This document shows positions 55,736 through 63,846 of a DNA stretch of 64,000 nucleotides, in pieces; position 1 is the first letter of the stretch, and each line of letters begins with the position of its first letter. The stretch comes from Promethearchaeota archaeon (lineage in GTDB: Archaea > Asgardarchaeota > Lokiarchaeia > Sigyniarchaeales > SOKP01): positions 75,764-139,763 of the forward strand of contig JBHLNF010000010.1 in NCBI GenBank assembly GCA_048937405.1. The letters are read 5' to 3'. The position numbers and the translations under genes are program-made. Below the pieces are notes generated by a model that saw only the letters and a program-made list of their open reading frames with translations, was not told the origin of the DNA and made no database searches.

Positions 55736-56106
55736 TTTTATTCACCTCATTGATTTTATTGGATATTTTAATGATAATTAAAGTAAAAATTCTATATATC
55801 TCTATTTTTTTATAACAATCTTCTTTATATCTCTTGAGATTGACAAGAAATAGTTATTTATATTTCAAAATATTAAAAATCCTCTTTATTCAATTGAGAA
55901 TTAGAGAGTTGATTGGATTTTTGAAAATATGGATTTTCCCGGATCACATGAAAGAACTCAACCTTTTCATATTATATCCAAGCATTATTTAAGCTCTAGG
56001 TAATAAAGGATTAAAAGAACTCCTTTTCTAATAATATTCAAATTAAATTTATATATGATCGTCGCTATTAGACAACTTAACTACTTTAAGTAAAGTGGGG
56101 TTTTAT

Positions 56107-58422
56107 ATGAAGAAATTCAAATTTAAATTGAAAAACAAAAACAAAATAAAAATTTTACCAATAGTACTACTTATTATGGCATTTTTAATAATCCCAAATG
56201 TATTATTTGGAACTAAGAGAGATATTAAAGTACATAGTGAAGAAAAGGTTATCAATGGATTTACCTCTCCATATGATCTCAAAGAATCCTCTGTCTATTA
56301 CGAAAATACAACCGGAGAAGCAAATGGAGTCTATGTGGACGGAGATTATGTATATATAGCTGCAGGTAGTTCAGGTTTAGCAGTAATAGATATTTCAGAT
56401 CCAACCAATCCTGGTACTCCAGTATATGAGGATACCACTGGAGAAGCCTCAGGAGTTTATGTGGATGGAGATTATGCTTATGTGGCAGATGGATCAAGTG
56501 GGTTGGCAGTTATTGATATTACAGATCCAACCACCCCGGGTACTCCAGTATATGAGGATACAACTGGAAGTGCCGTTGATATATTTATTAGTGGAAATTA
56601 TGCTTTTTTGGCAGATTATAATTTGGGATTAATGATAGTAGAAATCTCAGATCCGACCAACCCAGATACTCCAGTATATAAGGGGTCTGTTGGAAGTTCC
56701 ACAGGAGTTTATGTGGATGGAGATTATGCTTATGTGGCTGGCACAAATGGGTTGACAGTTATAGATGTTTCAGATCCAGCTAATCCTGGTACTCCAGTAT
56801 ATGAGGATATCAGCGAAGGGGCAGAGGACGTTTATGTTAGTGGAAATTATGCTTATTTAGCGGGTGGCACAAGTGGGTTGGCAGTTATAGATATTTCAGA
56901 TCCAACCAATCCTAGTACTCCAGTATATGAGGATACCACTGGAGAAGCCTCAGGAGTTTATGTGGATGGAGATTATGCTTATGTGGCAGATGGATCAAGT
57001 GGGTTGGCAGTTATTGATATTACAGATCCAATCTCCCCAGGTACTCCAGTATATGAGAATACCACTGGAGAAGCCTTAAGAGTTTATGTAGATGGAAACT
57101 ATGCTTATGTGGCAGATGGATCAAGTGGGTTGGCAGTTATTGATATTGCAGATCCAACTTCCCCAGGTACTCCAGTATATAAGGATACCACTGGAAGTGC
57201 CGTTGATATAATTATTAGTGGAAATTATGCTTATGTGGCGGATGATGATGAAGGCATAGTAACTATTAATATATCTGATCCAACCCATCTAGATGAACTT
57301 TCTAATGTGGAATGGACTGGATATAAATACGGTGTTTATGTGAGTGGAGATTTTCTTTATGCAGCTGCAGATGGTGATGGATTAATGGTATTCAATATTT
57401 CCGATCCTGCACACCCTGCAAATCCTGTTACTGTAAATACATTTGGAGTCCCTTATGATGTTTATGTAAGTGGAGATTATGCTTACGTGGCAAATGGAGC
57501 AGCAGGTTTGGCGGTTGTTGATATTTCAGATCCCACAAGTCCAGGACTCCTCGTAACAGTTCCTATTATTGGGGGGACAGCTTATGAGATATATATAAGT
57601 GGAGACTATGCCTATATAGCAGATGGAACAAACGGTTTGGCGGTTGTTGATATTTCAAATCCTACAAGTCCAGGACTCATCGGATTTCAGGATACCTATG
57701 GAGAAGCCTTAGGAGTTTATGTGAGTGGAGATTATGCCTACTTGACAAGTGGACCAGCAGGTTTGGCGGTTGTTAATATTTCAGATCCTACAATTCTAGG
57801 ACTTGCCGCATTACATGACACCACTGGAGAAGCCTCAGGAGTTTATGTGAGTGGAGATTATGCCTATGTAGCAGATGGATCAAGTGGTTTGGTGGTTGTT
57901 GATATTTCAGATCCAACAAGTCCAGGAGTCGCCGCATTACAGGACACTACTGGAGGTGCCTTAGGAGTTTATGTGAGTGGAGATTATGCCTATGTAGCAG
58001 ATGGATCAAGTGGTTTGGCGGTAATTAAAATCCGGAATAGAGTTGATATGATAGATCCAATAATAACAACAGCTCCAAGTGATTTTTCCGTTGATGAAGG
58101 ATATACAGGAGTAAATATCTCATGGACGGCAACAGATTCTAACCCTAGCATATATACGATTGGCCTCGAGGGAACTGGAACTGTTGTTAGTGCTACACCA
58201 TGGTCAAATGGTATAGCTGTTGTTTATCTTGTTCCAGATGGAGCGCCTGCGGGGGAATATGACTATACAATTACCTTTACTGATGATGCTGCTAATCTTG
58301 TTACTGATACAGTAACTATGACTGTTAAATCTGAAAGGGGAATTTCTTTTGGTAACTTTTTCATAATTTTTCTAGTAATTGGAATAATTTCATTAGTGAT
58401 TATCCAAAAACGAAAAAATTAG
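56107..58422 (+). CDS. LVIVD-repeat cell-surface protein with Ig-like domain and C-terminal TM anchor
   Basis: 14 repeats of V.V.G[DN]YAYVA.G..GLAVIDISDP..P, signal-like N-terminus, ISFG + TM + KRK tail. Confidence 0.92.
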   Translation: MKKFKFKLKNKNKIKILPIVLLIMAFLIIPNVLFGTKRDIKVHSEEKVINGFTSPYDLKESSVYYENTTGEANGVYVDGDYVYIAAGSSGLAVIDISDPTNPGTPVYEDTTGEASGVYVDGDYAYVADGSSGLAVIDITDPTTPGTPVYEDTTGSAVDIFISGNYAFLADYNLGLMIVEISDPTNPDTPVYKGSVGSSTGVYVDGDYAYVAGTNGLTVIDVSDPANPGTPVYEDISEGAEDVYVSGNYAYLAGGTSGLAVIDISDPTNPSTPVYEDTTGEASGVYVDGDYAYVADGSSGLAVIDITDPISPGTPVYENTTGEALRVYVDGNYAYVADGSSGLAVIDIADPTSPGTPVYKDTTGSAVDIIISGNYAYVADDDEGIVTINISDPTHLDELSNVEWTGYKYGVYVSGDFLYAAADGDGLMVFNISDPAHPANPVTVNTFGVPYDVYVSGDYAYVANGAAGLAVVDISDPTSPGLLVTVPIIGGTAYEIYISGDYAYIADGTNGLAVVDISNPTSPGLIGFQDTYGEALGVYVSGDYAYLTSGPAGLAVVNISDPTILGLAALHDTTGEASGVYVSGDYAYVADGSSGLVVVDISDPTSPGVAALQDTTGGALGVYVSGDYAYVADGSSGLAVIKIRNRVDMIDPIITTAPSDFSVDEGYTGVNISWTATDSNPSIYTIGLEGTGTVVSATPWSNGIAVVYLVPDGAPAGEYDYTITFTDDAANLVTDTVTMTVKSERGISFGNFFIIFLVIGIISLVIIQKRKN
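56300..58030 (+). repeat. ~126-nt coding tandem repeats (LVIVD blades)
   Basis: Recurrent units. 56414-56530 is identical to 56915-57031 (117 nt). Confidence 0.9.
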
Positions 58423-58497: not shown

Positions 58498-61400
58498 CTA
58501 TGCCTCAGGTAATAAAATAACAAAAGAATCTCCTTCAACCCATATTTTTCCATCGTAATTATCTAGGATTCGCTCGACTAAAAGAAACCCTAGAATTACT
58601 TCTTTAATCTTACTATCTTTTTCTCTTTCTTTATGGAAAATCATTTCTTTTCTCATATTTAATATATCTTTTTGATAATCAACGAATTGTATTTTAAGGT
58701 AATTTATGTTATCCTCTCGGCTTCTAAAGATAATAATTTTAATCTCAATAGTTGGGTTTCTATTGTATCTAATGGAACTAATAAGGATATTGATAAAAAC
58801 ATCTATTAAAAATTTATCAGCTTTTACATATAGATCCTCAGAGGGATGTTCAACAAGTATATTTATTTTCTTATTTGAATAACTATTAGTAATAAATTCT
58901 TTAACCTCATCAATGACATTATTAAGATTTACTGATTCAATTAAAACTTTTGTTTCATTAATCAATTTTAATTGTTCTACTATATATATCAATAAGCGAG
59001 CATTTATACATTGTTCTTTAATAAAATCCAGTAATTCTCGTTTAGAACTAATTATAAGTTGATTCTCTTGCTTTTTACTTTCATCTAATTGTAATTGAAT
59101 ATTCTTTATTATAGAATTTACATCATTTATGAATAGTTCCTTGTAAAAATATTCTCTATCTAATTCTTGATGCATAGATTCTTCACTTATACGTAAGTTT
59201 TCTTCAGCTAATTTACGTAGGATTACATTTTTAAGAATTTCTGGAATAATAGTTAATAAGTCAAAATTTTCTTCTATCCAATAATTCTTATCTGCTATAT
59301 TATCAAAACATAATATTCCTTCTAAGAGTTGATTAATTTTTATTGAATATACTAAAAAGTTTTCAACTTTTTGATTTTCAAGAAAGTACTTTAAATTCAC
59401 TGCTTCTCTTGGAAGATTCTTCATTCTTTTAACATAAAAATAATCAAATTCTTTTAATCTCTTGATTAACCATGGAAAGTTATCAATTTCTATCTTTTCA
59501 GGTAATATAATTTGAGGCGTAATCAACTTTCGAGACCAGAAATAATTTCTTTTTATAATATTAAATTTACTATTAAAAATGTAGAGGTATACTCGTGTAG
59601 CATCAACAAATTCACCGATATCTCTAAGTGAATCAATTATTGCTTGATTAAATTCGTGTATACCTACAAACCTAGATACAATTCCAGTAATAATAGCCTT
59701 TAATTTAGATATCTTTTTTAATTCAGTTTCTATTTTTTTCATTTCTGTTATATTCTGACAAATAATTTGATAGAATGTTTCATCACCAATATTAACTAAG
59801 GATGATTGCAGATTTACCCAGATGAGGTTACCATTTTTTTTATAAAGTTGAATTTCTAATGGAGAATAAATCTTACCTCTTTCTTCTTTCAGACTTTTAA
59901 GAACATCTACTAAATAATCTTTATGTATTATTGATAGATCTACAAATTTCCTTCCCATTAGTTCATCTTTAGTATATCCTAAGGTTTCCTCTAGTACAGG
60001 ATTGAAATCAACTAAGGTTCCATTAGAATCAATTAAGAAAATAGAAAAGGGTGAATTTTCGAAGAGATGACGATACTTTATTTCAGAATGCTTTAATTTA
60101 ATTTCTGCTTCTACTCTCTTACTAATATTTCGAATTATATATTGGACAAACAATTGTCCCCCCATCTGTACTTCATTCACATTAATTTCTACTGGAATTA
60201 AATTGCCGGAACTATCAATCACTTCTAATCTTAAAGGAAATGGATAATTAAGTTCGTCAAATACTTCTTCATTAAAATCTATATTAATTATATCACTTAA
60301 TATTTGGCTTGAATGCAAACCAATAAAATCCTCGAATGGTCGTTGAAATAAATTCTCCGCTTCTTTGTTCGCATCCATTATAATTCCTGAATTTTTATCA
60401 ATTATTATAATAGCATCTCGAGCAGCTTTAAATAAAGCCTCATAACGCAATTCAGCTATTTTTAGTGCTTCAATTGAAGGACGATATAAATCAATTTGAT
60501 GATTTATTGTATTATAAATAACTTCAAGAACATTTATTACTTGATTTTTATCTAAATAATTGCTTTTTAATTCACCAAATTGTTGAACTATAAAAGAACT
60601 AAATTGGTTAATGATATTCTTAGGTATATTTTCATTGTAATAAATTATTAAGCATAATGGAAATACACCACCTCTTATACTTTCATCTTCAACAGAATCA
60701 AAATAAATTGCTGCATTTGAATTTAGGTGAGGAATAGGAAGAATTACTGAGGTTGGTTTAATCTGATCTCCTCCAAAAATAAACTGTGATATTGAAAAGC
60801 TTTTTATAGCAATCAGTTCTGGATTTTCAAAAGCATCTTCAGGATAAATTGCATCAATTTTAATTCCAAGATTTTCATCCCAACGACAAAATATTATCCC
60901 AACATCTTTTCTGGGCGAATATTGCTCAACTCTCTCAGCGATTTTAAGTGTAAGCCAATTAAATGCCTCATCAATATTTATGTTTTTAATCGCACTTGTT
61001 AAAAACGATTTTATTGGTCTCTTTCCAAGCTTCTTTACACCCATAGCTTCTTCTAATTCATTTAAATCTTGTTTTTTCAAATCAACCTTATTAAAAAGGA
61101 TAAGTAGTGGTAATTCACTTAATTCGGGTTTTCCAGCAATTTCATGTAGTAATTCACGTGCAAATGAGAATTTTATTTTATCCATGACATCTAAAACAAA
61201 AATTAATCCATCTTGATTTTTTAGATAAGGTTTCCATAGTTGCTTAACTCTGTATTTTCCCGGTATATCATATGTTAATAAAGAGACATTATTGACTAAA
61301 ATTCTAGAAATATCTACATTTATAGTAGGAAATGTTGTTTTTGACACGGATTTTCTTCTAGTCCTGATAATAGTCGTCTTTCCTGCTAAAGAAAGCCCAA

Positions 61401-61887
61401 AGATTAGTACTTTTGCCTCTTTTTGCTCAAAAATAACTTCTTCTTCAGGAAAAGAAGTATAATATGTATTAAACAATGTTTTTATTTCTTCTAGTTTATT
61501 AGGATCTCCTTTGTCAATTCTAGATTCTACATAAAAAGCTTTATATGCATTTTCGATTTTTCTGAATTCCTCTACAAAACTCTCCAGAAACTCTTCTGCA
61601 TAAGTAGCTTTAATTTTAGATTTACTATCAATAATTAATGAAACTAAAAGGCGCTCCTTTTTTGTATTTGAATATTCGCTTGGAATGTCAAAGATTAGAT
61701 TAGCTGTATGAAAAGTTCCAAAAGTATGCTTAAAAAAACCATTTTCATAGAGATCTATCAATATAGGAACCTGTTTAATATCATCTCTTTGAATATTTTC
61801 AGGCGATTTCAAAAAAATATAAGGAGGAAAGTATGGATTGCGATGACTTAAAATTAAAATTCTCATATCTAAATATCCTCTAATCAC
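58498..61887 (-). CDS. Multidomain signalling protein: longin/uDENN-like, Arf-like GTPase, longin/uDENN-like, PAS, PAS, GAF, degenerate histidine kinase
   Basis: G1 GLSLAGKTT, PT, DIPGK, NKVD, SAI. PAS starts RYEALFKAARDAIIIID and KYRHLFENSPFSIFLID. GAF RVYLY...GILCFD....W. The kinase tail has degenerate H/N/G1/G2 boxes. Confidence 0.85.
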   Translation of the reverse strand: MIRGYLDMRILILSHRNPYFPPYIFLKSPENIQRDDIKQVPILIDLYENGFFKHTFGTFHTANLIFDIPSEYSNTKKERLLVSLIIDSKSKIKATYAEEFLESFVEEFRKIENAYKAFYVESRIDKGDPNKLEEIKTLFNTYYTSFPEEEVIFEQKEAKVLIFGLSLAGKTTIIRTRRKSVSKTTFPTINVDISRILVNNVSLLTYDIPGKYRVKQLWKPYLKNQDGLIFVLDVMDKIKFSFARELLHEIAGKPELSELPLLILFNKVDLKKQDLNELEEAMGVKKLGKRPIKSFLTSAIKNINIDEAFNWLTLKIAERVEQYSPRKDVGIIFCRWDENLGIKIDAIYPEDAFENPELIAIKSFSISQFIFGGDQIKPTSVILPIPHLNSNAAIYFDSVEDESIRGGVFPLCLIIYYNENIPKNIINQFSSFIVQQFGELKSNYLDKNQVINVLEVIYNTINHQIDLYRPSIEALKIAELRYEALFKAARDAIIIIDKNSGIIMDANKEAENLFQRPFEDFIGLHSSQILSDIINIDFNEEVFDELNYPFPLRLEVIDSSGNLIPVEINVNEVQMGGQLFVQYIIRNISKRVEAEIKLKHSEIKYRHLFENSPFSIFLIDSNGTLVDFNPVLEETLGYTKDELMGRKFVDLSIIHKDYLVDVLKSLKEERGKIYSPLEIQLYKKNGNLIWVNLQSSLVNIGDETFYQIICQNITEMKKIETELKKISKLKAIITGIVSRFVGIHEFNQAIIDSLRDIGEFVDATRVYLYIFNSKFNIIKRNYFWSRKLITPQIILPEKIEIDNFPWLIKRLKEFDYFYVKRMKNLPREAVNLKYFLENQKVENFLVYSIKINQLLEGILCFDNIADKNYWIEENFDLLTIIPEILKNVILRKLAEENLRISEESMHQELDREYFYKELFINDVNSIIKNIQLQLDESKKQENQLIISSKRELLDFIKEQCINARLLIYIVEQLKLINETKVLIESVNLNNVIDEVKEFITNSYSNKKINILVEHPSEDLYVKADKFLIDVFINILISSIRYNRNPTIEIKIIIFRSREDNINYLKIQFVDYQKDILNMRKEMIFHKEREKDSKIKEVILGFLLVERILDNYDGKIWVEGDSFVILLPEA

Positions 61888-63351: not shown

Positions 63352-63846
63352 ATGGGAATAAATTCTGAAGCGGCTAAATTTGTATTACTTGGTGTTGGTT
63401 TAGGTGCTTTAAATCTATTGTTTTATTATGGTTTTGTCGCACCATTCCAAAAATTTGGAAACTTTATCGCATTTTTTAATTTTGGATTAGAAATAATATT
63501 AATGTTTCTTTTCGCTAAGTTTAAAGATTATTTATCTAAGAGAAAACCCCCCCTCACAGAAGAAGAACAAACACAAAAATATGGAGGACGTGTCATTTTC
63601 TCAATGGAAAAAACAGAAGCTGTAAAATATTTTTATATCTTTATACTTATCTATATTTATGTGATTATTTTCGTTCCAATTTTTACCATGCCCACAGGAG
63701 TAGCAATTAGTGAGACCGAAGCGTACGCTATTATCAGATCTTCTACTGAAGTAGATTTATTAATATTTGGACTGATGCAATTCATTTTTATTCCTGCACT
63801 TCATTTTGTATCTATTGTCTTAGGTGGGTTTGGATTAGAAAAATGA
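63352..63846 (+). CDS. Uncharacterised 4-TM membrane protein
   Basis: Four hydrophobic segments. Confidence 0.7.
   Translation: MGINSEAAKFVLLGVGLGALNLLFYYGFVAPFQKFGNFIAFFNFGLEIILMFLFAKFKDYLSKRKPPLTEEEQTQKYGGRVIFSMEKTEAVKYFYIFILIYIYVIIFVPIFTMPTGVAISETEAYAIIRSSTEVDLLIFGLMQFIFIPALHFVSIVLGGFGLEK

Follow-up and report, generated by a model that had tools for sequence, protein, structure and literature searches.

A soluble Lokiarchaeial signalling protein of ~1122 amino acids is encoded on the minus strand of the 64,000-nucleotide stretch of contig JBHLNF010000010.1 analysed here (hereafter the window). In a single chain, it joins an Arf-like small GTPase, two flanking domains that are read as longin-like, a PAS-PAS-GAF sensor array and a histidine kinase tail from which the catalytic motifs have been lost. 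The protein is under purifying selection. The reading tentatively favoured here, although slightly more apt to fail than to hold, is that of an Arf switch that works as a dimer, is controlled by the sensor domains and carries its own longin regulator, comparable to a conservon condensed into one chain.

Architecture of the fusion protein

The gene lies in an uninterrupted frame of 1129 codons plus stop, which opens at a GTG and occupies 58498..61887 on the minus strand. Its real start is probably the ATG at 61866 (Met8), since the homologues begin at the residue matching Met8 (M[RK]ILILSH) and an identical database protein, P0002, has 1122 residues; the likely coding sequence is thus 58498..61866. 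From the N- to the C-terminus, the domains are longin-like, Arf, longin-like, a helical linker, PAS, PAS, GAF, DHp-like (dimerisation and histidine phosphotransfer) and CA-like (catalytic and ATP-binding). Structural models were obtained with AlphaFold2 on family alignments, with a mean pLDDT (predicted local distance difference test) of about 80. No transmembrane segment is present in the 1122-residue protein. An initial annotation of the same DNA had described a single 1129-residue frame with an Arf-like G domain, two PAS domains, a GAF domain and a kinase-shaped tail, all of which are indeed there. Its list comprises six of the eight domains, but it overlooked the two longin-like domains on either side of the GTPase (residues 8-145 and 325-445).

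The Arf-like G domain

The G domain (residues 154-315; 60943..61428, minus strand) matches the Pfam family Arf (PF00025) over residues 154-313 with an E-value of 2.6e-35 and 121.9 bits, against a cut-off of 22.3, and in the AlphaFold2 model it spans residues 149-313. Its best sequence matches among solved structures are all members of the Arf/Arl/Sar group, namely eukaryotic Arf1, Arf6, Arl and Sar1. The top match is Arf1 (E 8.6e-26, about 30% identity), and the Arf-type LWxxY...GLIFV[VL]D stretch is shared. The G motifs quoted in the initial annotation can all be found in the sequence: G1 as GLSLAGKTT at 164-172, the switch I threonine as T188, G3 as DIPG at 207-210, G4 as NKVD at 266-269 and G5 as TSA, with SAI at 298-300. 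Across an alignment of 103 homologues, the corresponding patterns (GxxxxGK[ST]T, the switch I Thr, DxPG, NKxD and TS[GA]) show little or no variation, which argues for the G domain having kept nucleotide binding.

The initial annotation was silent on one substitution within G3. By sequence alignment, K211 (codon 61255..61257, minus strand), which directly follows DIPG, aligns with Q71 of Arf1, the catalytic glutamine. The equivalent position is Lys in 48 and Gln in another 48 of the 103 homologues. In a tree built from the non-kinase columns, Lys was gained once, at the base of the crown clade, and the change from Gln to Lys is confined to this clade, where the kinase motifs are all lost. In the Arf family, membrane binding is served by an N-terminal amphipathic helix or by a myristoylated Gly2. 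An Arf-type N-terminal helix of this kind was not found here: a folded, longin-like domain of 140 residues precedes the G domain, and there is no hydrophobic segment.

Longin-like domains on either side of the GTPase

According to the AlphaFold2 prediction, the N-terminal domain (N-domain, residues 8-145; 61453..61866, minus strand) consists of beta-beta-alpha-beta-beta-beta-alpha-alpha, that is, a longin topology, with a pLDDT mostly between 81 and 93 in this block. The second domain (mid-domain, residues 325-445; 60553..60915, minus strand) is predicted over residues 322-435 of the model as beta-beta-alpha-beta-beta-beta-alpha. It is followed by a long helix that leads to the first PAS domain through the helical linker (residues 446-487; 60427..60552, minus strand), with long helices over model residues 440-479. 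The linker contains a stretch, ELRY..LFKAA, that is invariant or nearly so in the homologue alignment.

Longins of GTPase-activating protein (GAP) complexes are marked by a GP motif just before strand 2 and by an arginine finger, to which C9orf72 adds an adjacent WD; the same motifs have been reported in some Asgard longins, and which GTPases these serve was left as a question (PMC12290439). Both flanking domains carry residues that resemble these motifs in part. The N-domain has an x-Pro motif just before strand 2, which is P21-P22 in the protein and Gly-Pro in 25 relatives; P22 is present in all 80 of the 80 homologues with a residue at that site. The mid-domain contains W336-D337-E-N-L-G341 and R405-G-G, where the spacing of W336-D337...G341 is that of W33-D34...G38-P39 in C9orf72 (PMC12290439), and W336, D337, G341 and R405 are each found in 102-103 of the 103 homologues. 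On these sequence features, the mid-domain probably belongs to the GP/WD/Arg class, and R405, beside the WD/G motif, is its candidate arginine finger.

Searching 1.84 billion representative proteins with a mid-domain profile recovered a family of 166 clusters. Its logo is WDExxGP (W in 140, D in 121, G in 140 and P in 107 of 142), and a second motif, VRGG, has its Arg in 126 of about 135 representatives. The family occurs in four settings: alone (~150 residues), N-terminal in tetratricopeptide repeat (TPR) proteins (~680 residues), after the GTPase in the fusions and C-terminal to a REC domain (~300 residues). Taken together, WDExxGP...VRGG looks like the signature of a sizeable, unnamed Asgard domain family. 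The TPR-repeat proteins with this N-terminal longin-like domain form a large set, of which P0168, P0172 and P0178 are examples.

Other comparisons gave weak leads or none. Ten stand-alone relatives gave matches below threshold only, and the hits obtained in the profile searches were isolated and weak, namely Folliculin (E 0.007 and 0.17) and Afi1 (E 0.076). One archaeal cluster among the language-model neighbours of both flanking domains has Pfam NPR2 in 19% of its members. Aligning the N-domain with the mid-domain in hhalign gave a probability of 1.2% with the fused-family alignments; with the broader mid-domain profile the match was in register but weak (E 9.5e-4, probability 22%). Fold searches with the model of residues 8-487 (Foldseek PDB, VIA wide and ESM Atlas) were uninformative on the flanking domains, as GTPase matches fill the lists. 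Complex prediction with the N-domain, mid-domain and G domain as separate chains scored 0.00 and gave no verdict either way. Only fragments of the same family came up when shorter relatives of the N-domain were sought by word matching; six paralogous copies of this domain are present in the genome.

The degenerate kinase tail

The tail is composed of a DHp-like helical hairpin (residues 899-985; 58933..59193, minus strand), whose fold matches HK853 and DivL, and a degenerate, HATPase_c-like CA domain (residues 986-1129; 58501..58932, minus strand). It thus has the DHp hairpin and the alpha/beta CA fold of sensor histidine kinases. At residues 1026-1128, HATPase_c scores 24.1 bits, under the cut-off of 26.4, whereas fused relatives with an intact tail reach 52-61 bits and the two stand-alone paralogues that were scanned reach 60-68 bits. 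The closest paralogues of the tail are four stand-alone PAS kinases of the same genome, and comparison with them locates the losses. In the H-box, their YKDxFxHD[IM]NN corresponds to FYKELFINDVN, so that the phospho-acceptor His is replaced by Asn921 (codon 59125-59127). In the N-box, DVFENIL..INA[VI]KYN corresponds to DVFINILISSIRYN, with Glu replaced by Ile and the second, Mg-binding Asn by Ser (S1037). The G1 box (DxGxG) is DNGIGI in the paralogues and DYQKDI here, and the G2 box (GxGxG) is GMG[IL]GL and EVILGF, respectively. This mapping of the motifs is upheld by residue-level alignments to ThkA, PhoQ and ZraS, and Asn921 aligns with the His of the four same-genome kinases as well as with that of fused relatives. 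The dead histidine kinase proposed in the initial annotation is therefore borne out for this protein, in which the acceptor His, the Mg-binding Asn and the G1 and G2 boxes are gone. With these residues lost, canonical autophosphorylation is very unlikely. Other features are kept, among them N1033, the adenine-contacting D1070, the F-box, G1100 and the acidic residue that follows Asn921. The segment FYKELF-x-[NH]-D, which includes the site of the lost His, does not vary.

Within the family, these motifs occur in several states. At the phospho-acceptor position, 68 of the 103 members have Asn, 19 His and 8 Gln. Clade A (24 representatives, most of them without GAF and ~950 residues long) retains the motifs of the N-box and of G1 and, in many cases, the His. 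Clade B (78 representatives, nearly all with GAF and including the window protein) has lost the ATP-binding motifs, and its basal members keep the His without them. Between the His and non-His states there are at least eight changes on the family tree, some of them in members whose ATP motifs are intact. Rooting on the intact paralogues makes the dead state the derived one, and a kinase-competent fused ancestor is the parsimonious origin, because relatives with intact motifs exist. Within the crown clade, pairwise identity is 79% for the CA domain, 83% for the Arf domain and 65% for both the GAF and DHp domains. The tail is thus still conserved at the sequence level, and therefore looks like a working pseudokinase and not like a decaying domain.

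Sensor domains

Between the linker and the tail lie two PAS domains and a GAF-fold domain. PAS_9 (Pfam, 81.2 bits) and TIGR00229 (NCBIfam, 126 bits, E 8.3e-37) each match above the cut-off, in two stretches. The first PAS domain covers about residues 488-600 (60088..60426, minus strand), with a Diguanyl_cycl_sensor match at 488-540, and the second about residues 601-725 (59713..60087, minus strand), with PAS_9 at 614-715 and TIGR00229 at 600-723. The GAF-fold domain (residues 726-898; 59194..59712, minus strand) is assigned by profile or fold.

Distribution of the fusion

Among 5.8 billion proteins searched, full-length homologues with 39-100% identity numbered more than 100. All of them come from Asgard metagenome bins (Promethearchaeota, Lokiarchaeia-type), on many contigs and from several data sources. 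The initial annotation had suggested looking for the same architecture in Asgard proteomes, and the full-length fusion recurs in independent Lokiarchaeial assemblies. When the N-terminal 480 residues were used as the query in a scan of 399 genomes of the phylum, 60 of the 133 genomes of the GTDB family to which the window belongs had matches inside frames of 1120-1150 residues. Other families of the class have two-domain forms of ~325 residues, made up of the N-domain and the GTPase, and no fusion was found outside the class with this query. A pattern scan located 54 loci in named metagenome-assembled genomes (MAGs).

The host genome amounts to 4.47 Mb in 29 contigs, and the gene region is tiled by exact Logan contigs from sediment metagenomes of two studies. 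One of these runs is possibly the source of the assembly. Among the public runs listed for the stretch there is no RNA run, and the queries made returned no cultured host with a homologue, all named records being MAGs.

Two further observations concern the records of the family. Proteins with 75-90% identity to the window protein are encoded by MAGs labelled as Odin-, Hermod-, Hod-, Thor- and Heimdallarchaeota; GTDB places these MAGs in the genus or family of the window itself, and the phylum labels given by the submitters look unreliable and were left aside. In one related genome (G156:C141:3166-4233), an 826-residue frame matches residues 1-167 and 323-479 of the query, the two matches being separated by about 32 residues. 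Judged from its sequence, it appears to be a family member that lost the G domain naturally.

Genomic context and links to two-component systems

Gene neighbourhoods were compared by clustering the open reading frames within 4 kb of the gene over 50 loci. A conserved partner gene was rejected, since no neighbour is shared throughout these loci. The commonest neighbour cluster, a Ras-type small GTPase, is found at 11 of the 50, in varying positions and on varying strands, and a Gtr1/RagA-type GTPase at 6. Neither a roadblock gene nor a response regulator recurs near the fusion within this range.

The initial annotation had seen no response regulator in the window, and this extends to the whole contig, which has no REC domain: all 26 PF00072 matches of the genome are on other contigs. 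Of the REC domains in the genome, 25 are above the cut-off, and many are stand-alone. Two response regulators of the same genome consist of a REC domain and a longin of the mid-domain type. The first, of 313 residues, lies directly downstream of a canonical MASE3-PAS-HisKA-HATPase_c kinase of 645 residues (kinase and regulator at C7:402623-405563), and the second, of 297 residues, which reads NWDDVVGP...YRGG, is found elsewhere on the same contig (C7:275719-276612). At least ten further longin fusions of REC size are present among the database representatives. The kinase and its adjacent regulator would make up a phosphorelay whose output domain resembles a GAP longin. In addition, an N-domain paralogue is fused directly to PAS-GAF-PAS in a protein of 552 residues (C28:443576-445234, minus strand), without GTPase and without kinase tail. 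Because these REC-longin regulators and the N-domain-PAS-GAF-PAS protein are encoded in the same genome, the coupling of two-component and longin domains is, as judged from gene content, a theme of the organism and not a one-off.

In the window, the neighbours of the gene are unrelated to it, with a DsbA-like gene upstream, a convergent gene for an LVIVD-repeat protein, a ferredoxin and methyltransferases. The LVIVD-repeat protein (56095-58422, plus strand) has 775 residues and 14 repeats of the beta-propeller type (E 2.9e-145), and its stretch has a distinctly higher G+C content (39%) than the remainder of the window (about 29%). An open frame of 164 residues (63352-63846, plus strand), which lies upstream of the DsbA-like gene, has no Pfam match.

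Proposed mechanism and alternatives

As a sensor-controlled Arf switch, the protein would form dimers by way of its DHp-like four-helix bundle and its helical spine, in the manner of sensor kinases. Small ligands bound by the PAS and GAF domains would shift the register of the spine, and this shift would be relayed to the longin-GTPase-longin module. There, the paired longin-like domains would provide a built-in regulatory platform, with R405 as candidate arginine finger next to the WD/G motif, resembling the paired longins of the C9orf72-SMCR8, FLCN-FNIP and GATOR1 GAPs. The platform would set the GTP or GDP state of the Arf-like domain, and this nucleotide state would be the output, read by partner proteins. 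The dead kinase domain would act as a scaffold for dimerisation and docking.

The initial annotation had proposed a kinase rewired to GTPase cycling. The conserved fusion and the kinase-competent fused ancestor speak for this proposal, but the G module occupies an input position, so that the signal may flow in either direction. The longin-like domains and the Gln-to-Lys change, both missed at that stage, together lead to a more specific hypothesis, that of an intramolecular longin-type regulator of the GTPase. In its boldest form, the longin-Arf-longin part would be a self-contained GTPase with its own longin-type GAP, an archaeal forerunner of the C9orf72-SMCR8, FLCN and GATOR1 GAPs, gated by the PAS and GAF domains through a retired kinase chassis; this version is possible but doubtful.

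Several points weigh against a switch of this kind. Both flanking domains are read as longin-like from predicted topology, short motifs and weak leads, and neither has a significant sequence match in Pfam or the PDB (30 members each, and PDB profiles). In the mid-domain of the fused family, the residue after G341, where the GP motif has Pro, is Ile, Val or Leu, with Pro in 2 of the 103 homologues. The AlphaFold2 predicted template modelling score for residues 8-487 is only 0.41, so that the packing of the domains against each other is without confident prediction. The G module stands N-terminal to the sensors, where inputs usually sit in sensor kinases, and the relatives that lack GAF but have their ATP-binding motifs intact suggest the kinase as the ancestral output. 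Finally, N1033, D1070 and the acidic residue, which are all kept, leave room for binding of a nucleotide or of a response regulator by the tail.

Part of this evidence fits a reversed flow of information, which is the main alternative and, although rather unlikely, a serious one. The longin-GTPase-longin part would then be an N-terminal sensor of the GTP/GDP state or of a partner, and the pseudokinase would be the output: its non-catalytic DHp and CA domains would bind, sequester or dephosphorylate a response regulator, or would modulate a true kinase, as DivL does in Caulobacter. Besides the domain order, which places the G module at the input position of sensor kinases, this is favoured by clade A, whose ATP-binding motifs and frequent His make phosphotransfer the probable ancestral output, and by the high conservation of the CA domain after catalysis was lost. 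The invariant FYKELF-x-[NH]-D stretch with its acidic residue, and the 25 REC domains of the genome, also count in favour of this flow. However, at the 50 loci neither a response regulator nor a kinase is ever a conserved neighbour, the repeated changes of the His state, some of them with ATP motifs intact, indicate that phosphotransfer is not the constrained function, and the DHp domain is among the least conserved parts of the protein in the crown clade.

An unusual but working kinase is improbable. In this case the CA domain would bind ATP and phosphorylate another residue or a partner, or the DHp domain would be phosphorylated in trans by a paralogous kinase. The retained N1033, D1070, F-box and G1100 could serve such an activity, basal members of clade B show that the His can persist without the ATP-binding motifs, and the tail is under purifying selection; against this, the acceptor His, the Mg-binding Asn and the G1 glycines are absent from the protein, a single G2 glycine remains, and its HATPase_c match is below the Pfam cut-off. 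An assembly chimera is excluded, and the chance of any artefact, a decaying pseudogene included, is negligible, given that dozens of independent MAGs, obtained in different studies, have the same full-length frame without stops, at 39-91% identity and with all domains conserved, and that nothing was found in support of an artefact beyond the shortness of the Logan contigs over the gene, no single listed piece of which spans it.

Comparison with known systems

The closest functional analogue of the proposed Arf switch is the actinobacterial conservon (AGPS), which likewise combines a kinase-type sensor, a protein of the roadblock/longin superfamily and a Ras-superfamily GTPase and has no response regulator. 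Its components are the histidine-kinase-type sensor CvnA, the roadblock protein CvnB, CvnC and the small GTPase CvnD, the last of which is thought to be the output (PMC4316618, PMC13343842). The conservon differs in being made of four proteins encoded in an operon; its GTPase is of the MglA type and its CvnA is bound to the membrane and autophosphorylates, whereas the window protein is one soluble chain with an Arf-type GTPase, two longin-like domains, PAS-PAS-GAF and a degenerate kinase. As no CvnC-like part is seen and there is no cvnA-D operon with an MglA-type GTPase, the analogy is functional only.

In structural logic, the closest systems are the eukaryotic longin GAP complexes, C9orf72-SMCR8 for Arf and FLCN-FNIP and GATOR1 (NPRL2-NPRL3) for Rag. 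They share with the window protein the combination of two longins, here longin-like domains, with an Arf/Rag-type GTPase, and the mid-domain has WD...G with the spacing of C9orf72 together with an invariant Arg (PMC12290439). The eukaryotic longins, however, are separate subunits with DENN domains that act in trans at lysosomes, whereas those predicted here surround the GTPase in cis and are joined to bacterial-type sensors, and the Pro of the GP motif is replaced by a hydrophobic residue.

The building blocks themselves are known from the same lineage. MK-D1 encodes longin-GTPase, GTPase-roadblock and longin-GTPase-roadblock proteins (PMC10933270), and a preprint states that fusions of NPRL2-like longins to two-component domains are frequent in Asgard genomes (bioRxiv 10.1101/2020.10.19.343400). 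The novelty claimed in the initial annotation was accordingly overstated, since related Asgard fusions and the conservon had already been reported, but no account of the exact chain was found: in the searchable literature there is no description of the full eight-domain chain, of its pseudokinase state or of the Gln-to-Lys change, with the limit that Fig. 5c of the same preprint, which lay outside this search, may draw a related architecture.

Among degenerate kinases, DivL of Caulobacter has Tyr in place of His, and it differs in keeping an ATP-binding CA domain, in being membrane-anchored and in having no GTPase or longin parts. ROCO proteins (Roc GTPase-COR-kinase, for example LRRK2) also carry a Ras-like G domain N-terminal to a kinase-type domain in one chain, and form dimers. 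Their dimerisation domain is COR and their kinase a Ser/Thr kinase, compared with longin-like domains and a histidine-kinase fold in the window protein, and the likeness implies no homology beyond the G domain.

Significance for Asgard signalling

Asgard archaea have many eukaryote-like small GTPases and longin or roadblock proteins, and a conserved fusion is the strongest genomic hint of a partnership between such components. Their genes are seldom found in operons, so that partners are unreadable from gene order (PMC10933270). Here, one chain ties an Arf-like GTPase to two longin-like domains, one of them with the motifs of GAP longins, and to ligand sensors, a physical join of prokaryote-type sensing and eukaryote-type GTPase parts that is known in one Lokiarchaeial family. 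The protein family offers a natural series from kinase-competent to kinase-dead members, and the protein, being soluble and modular, is practical for biochemistry. If the proposed switch is correct, it would offer a testable link between prokaryotic two-component sensing and the control of Arf/Rag-type GTPases, with a bearing on the origin of the eukaryotic nutrient-sensing GAP complexes. In its boldest form, that of a built-in longin GAP, the reading would go further: by Rosetta-stone logic, Arf-like GTPases would be the clients of the GP-motif Asgard longins, which is what PMC12290439 asks, and, with the REC-longin regulators taken into account, two-component sensing in Lokiarchaeia would be connected directly to GTPase regulation of the eukaryotic type.

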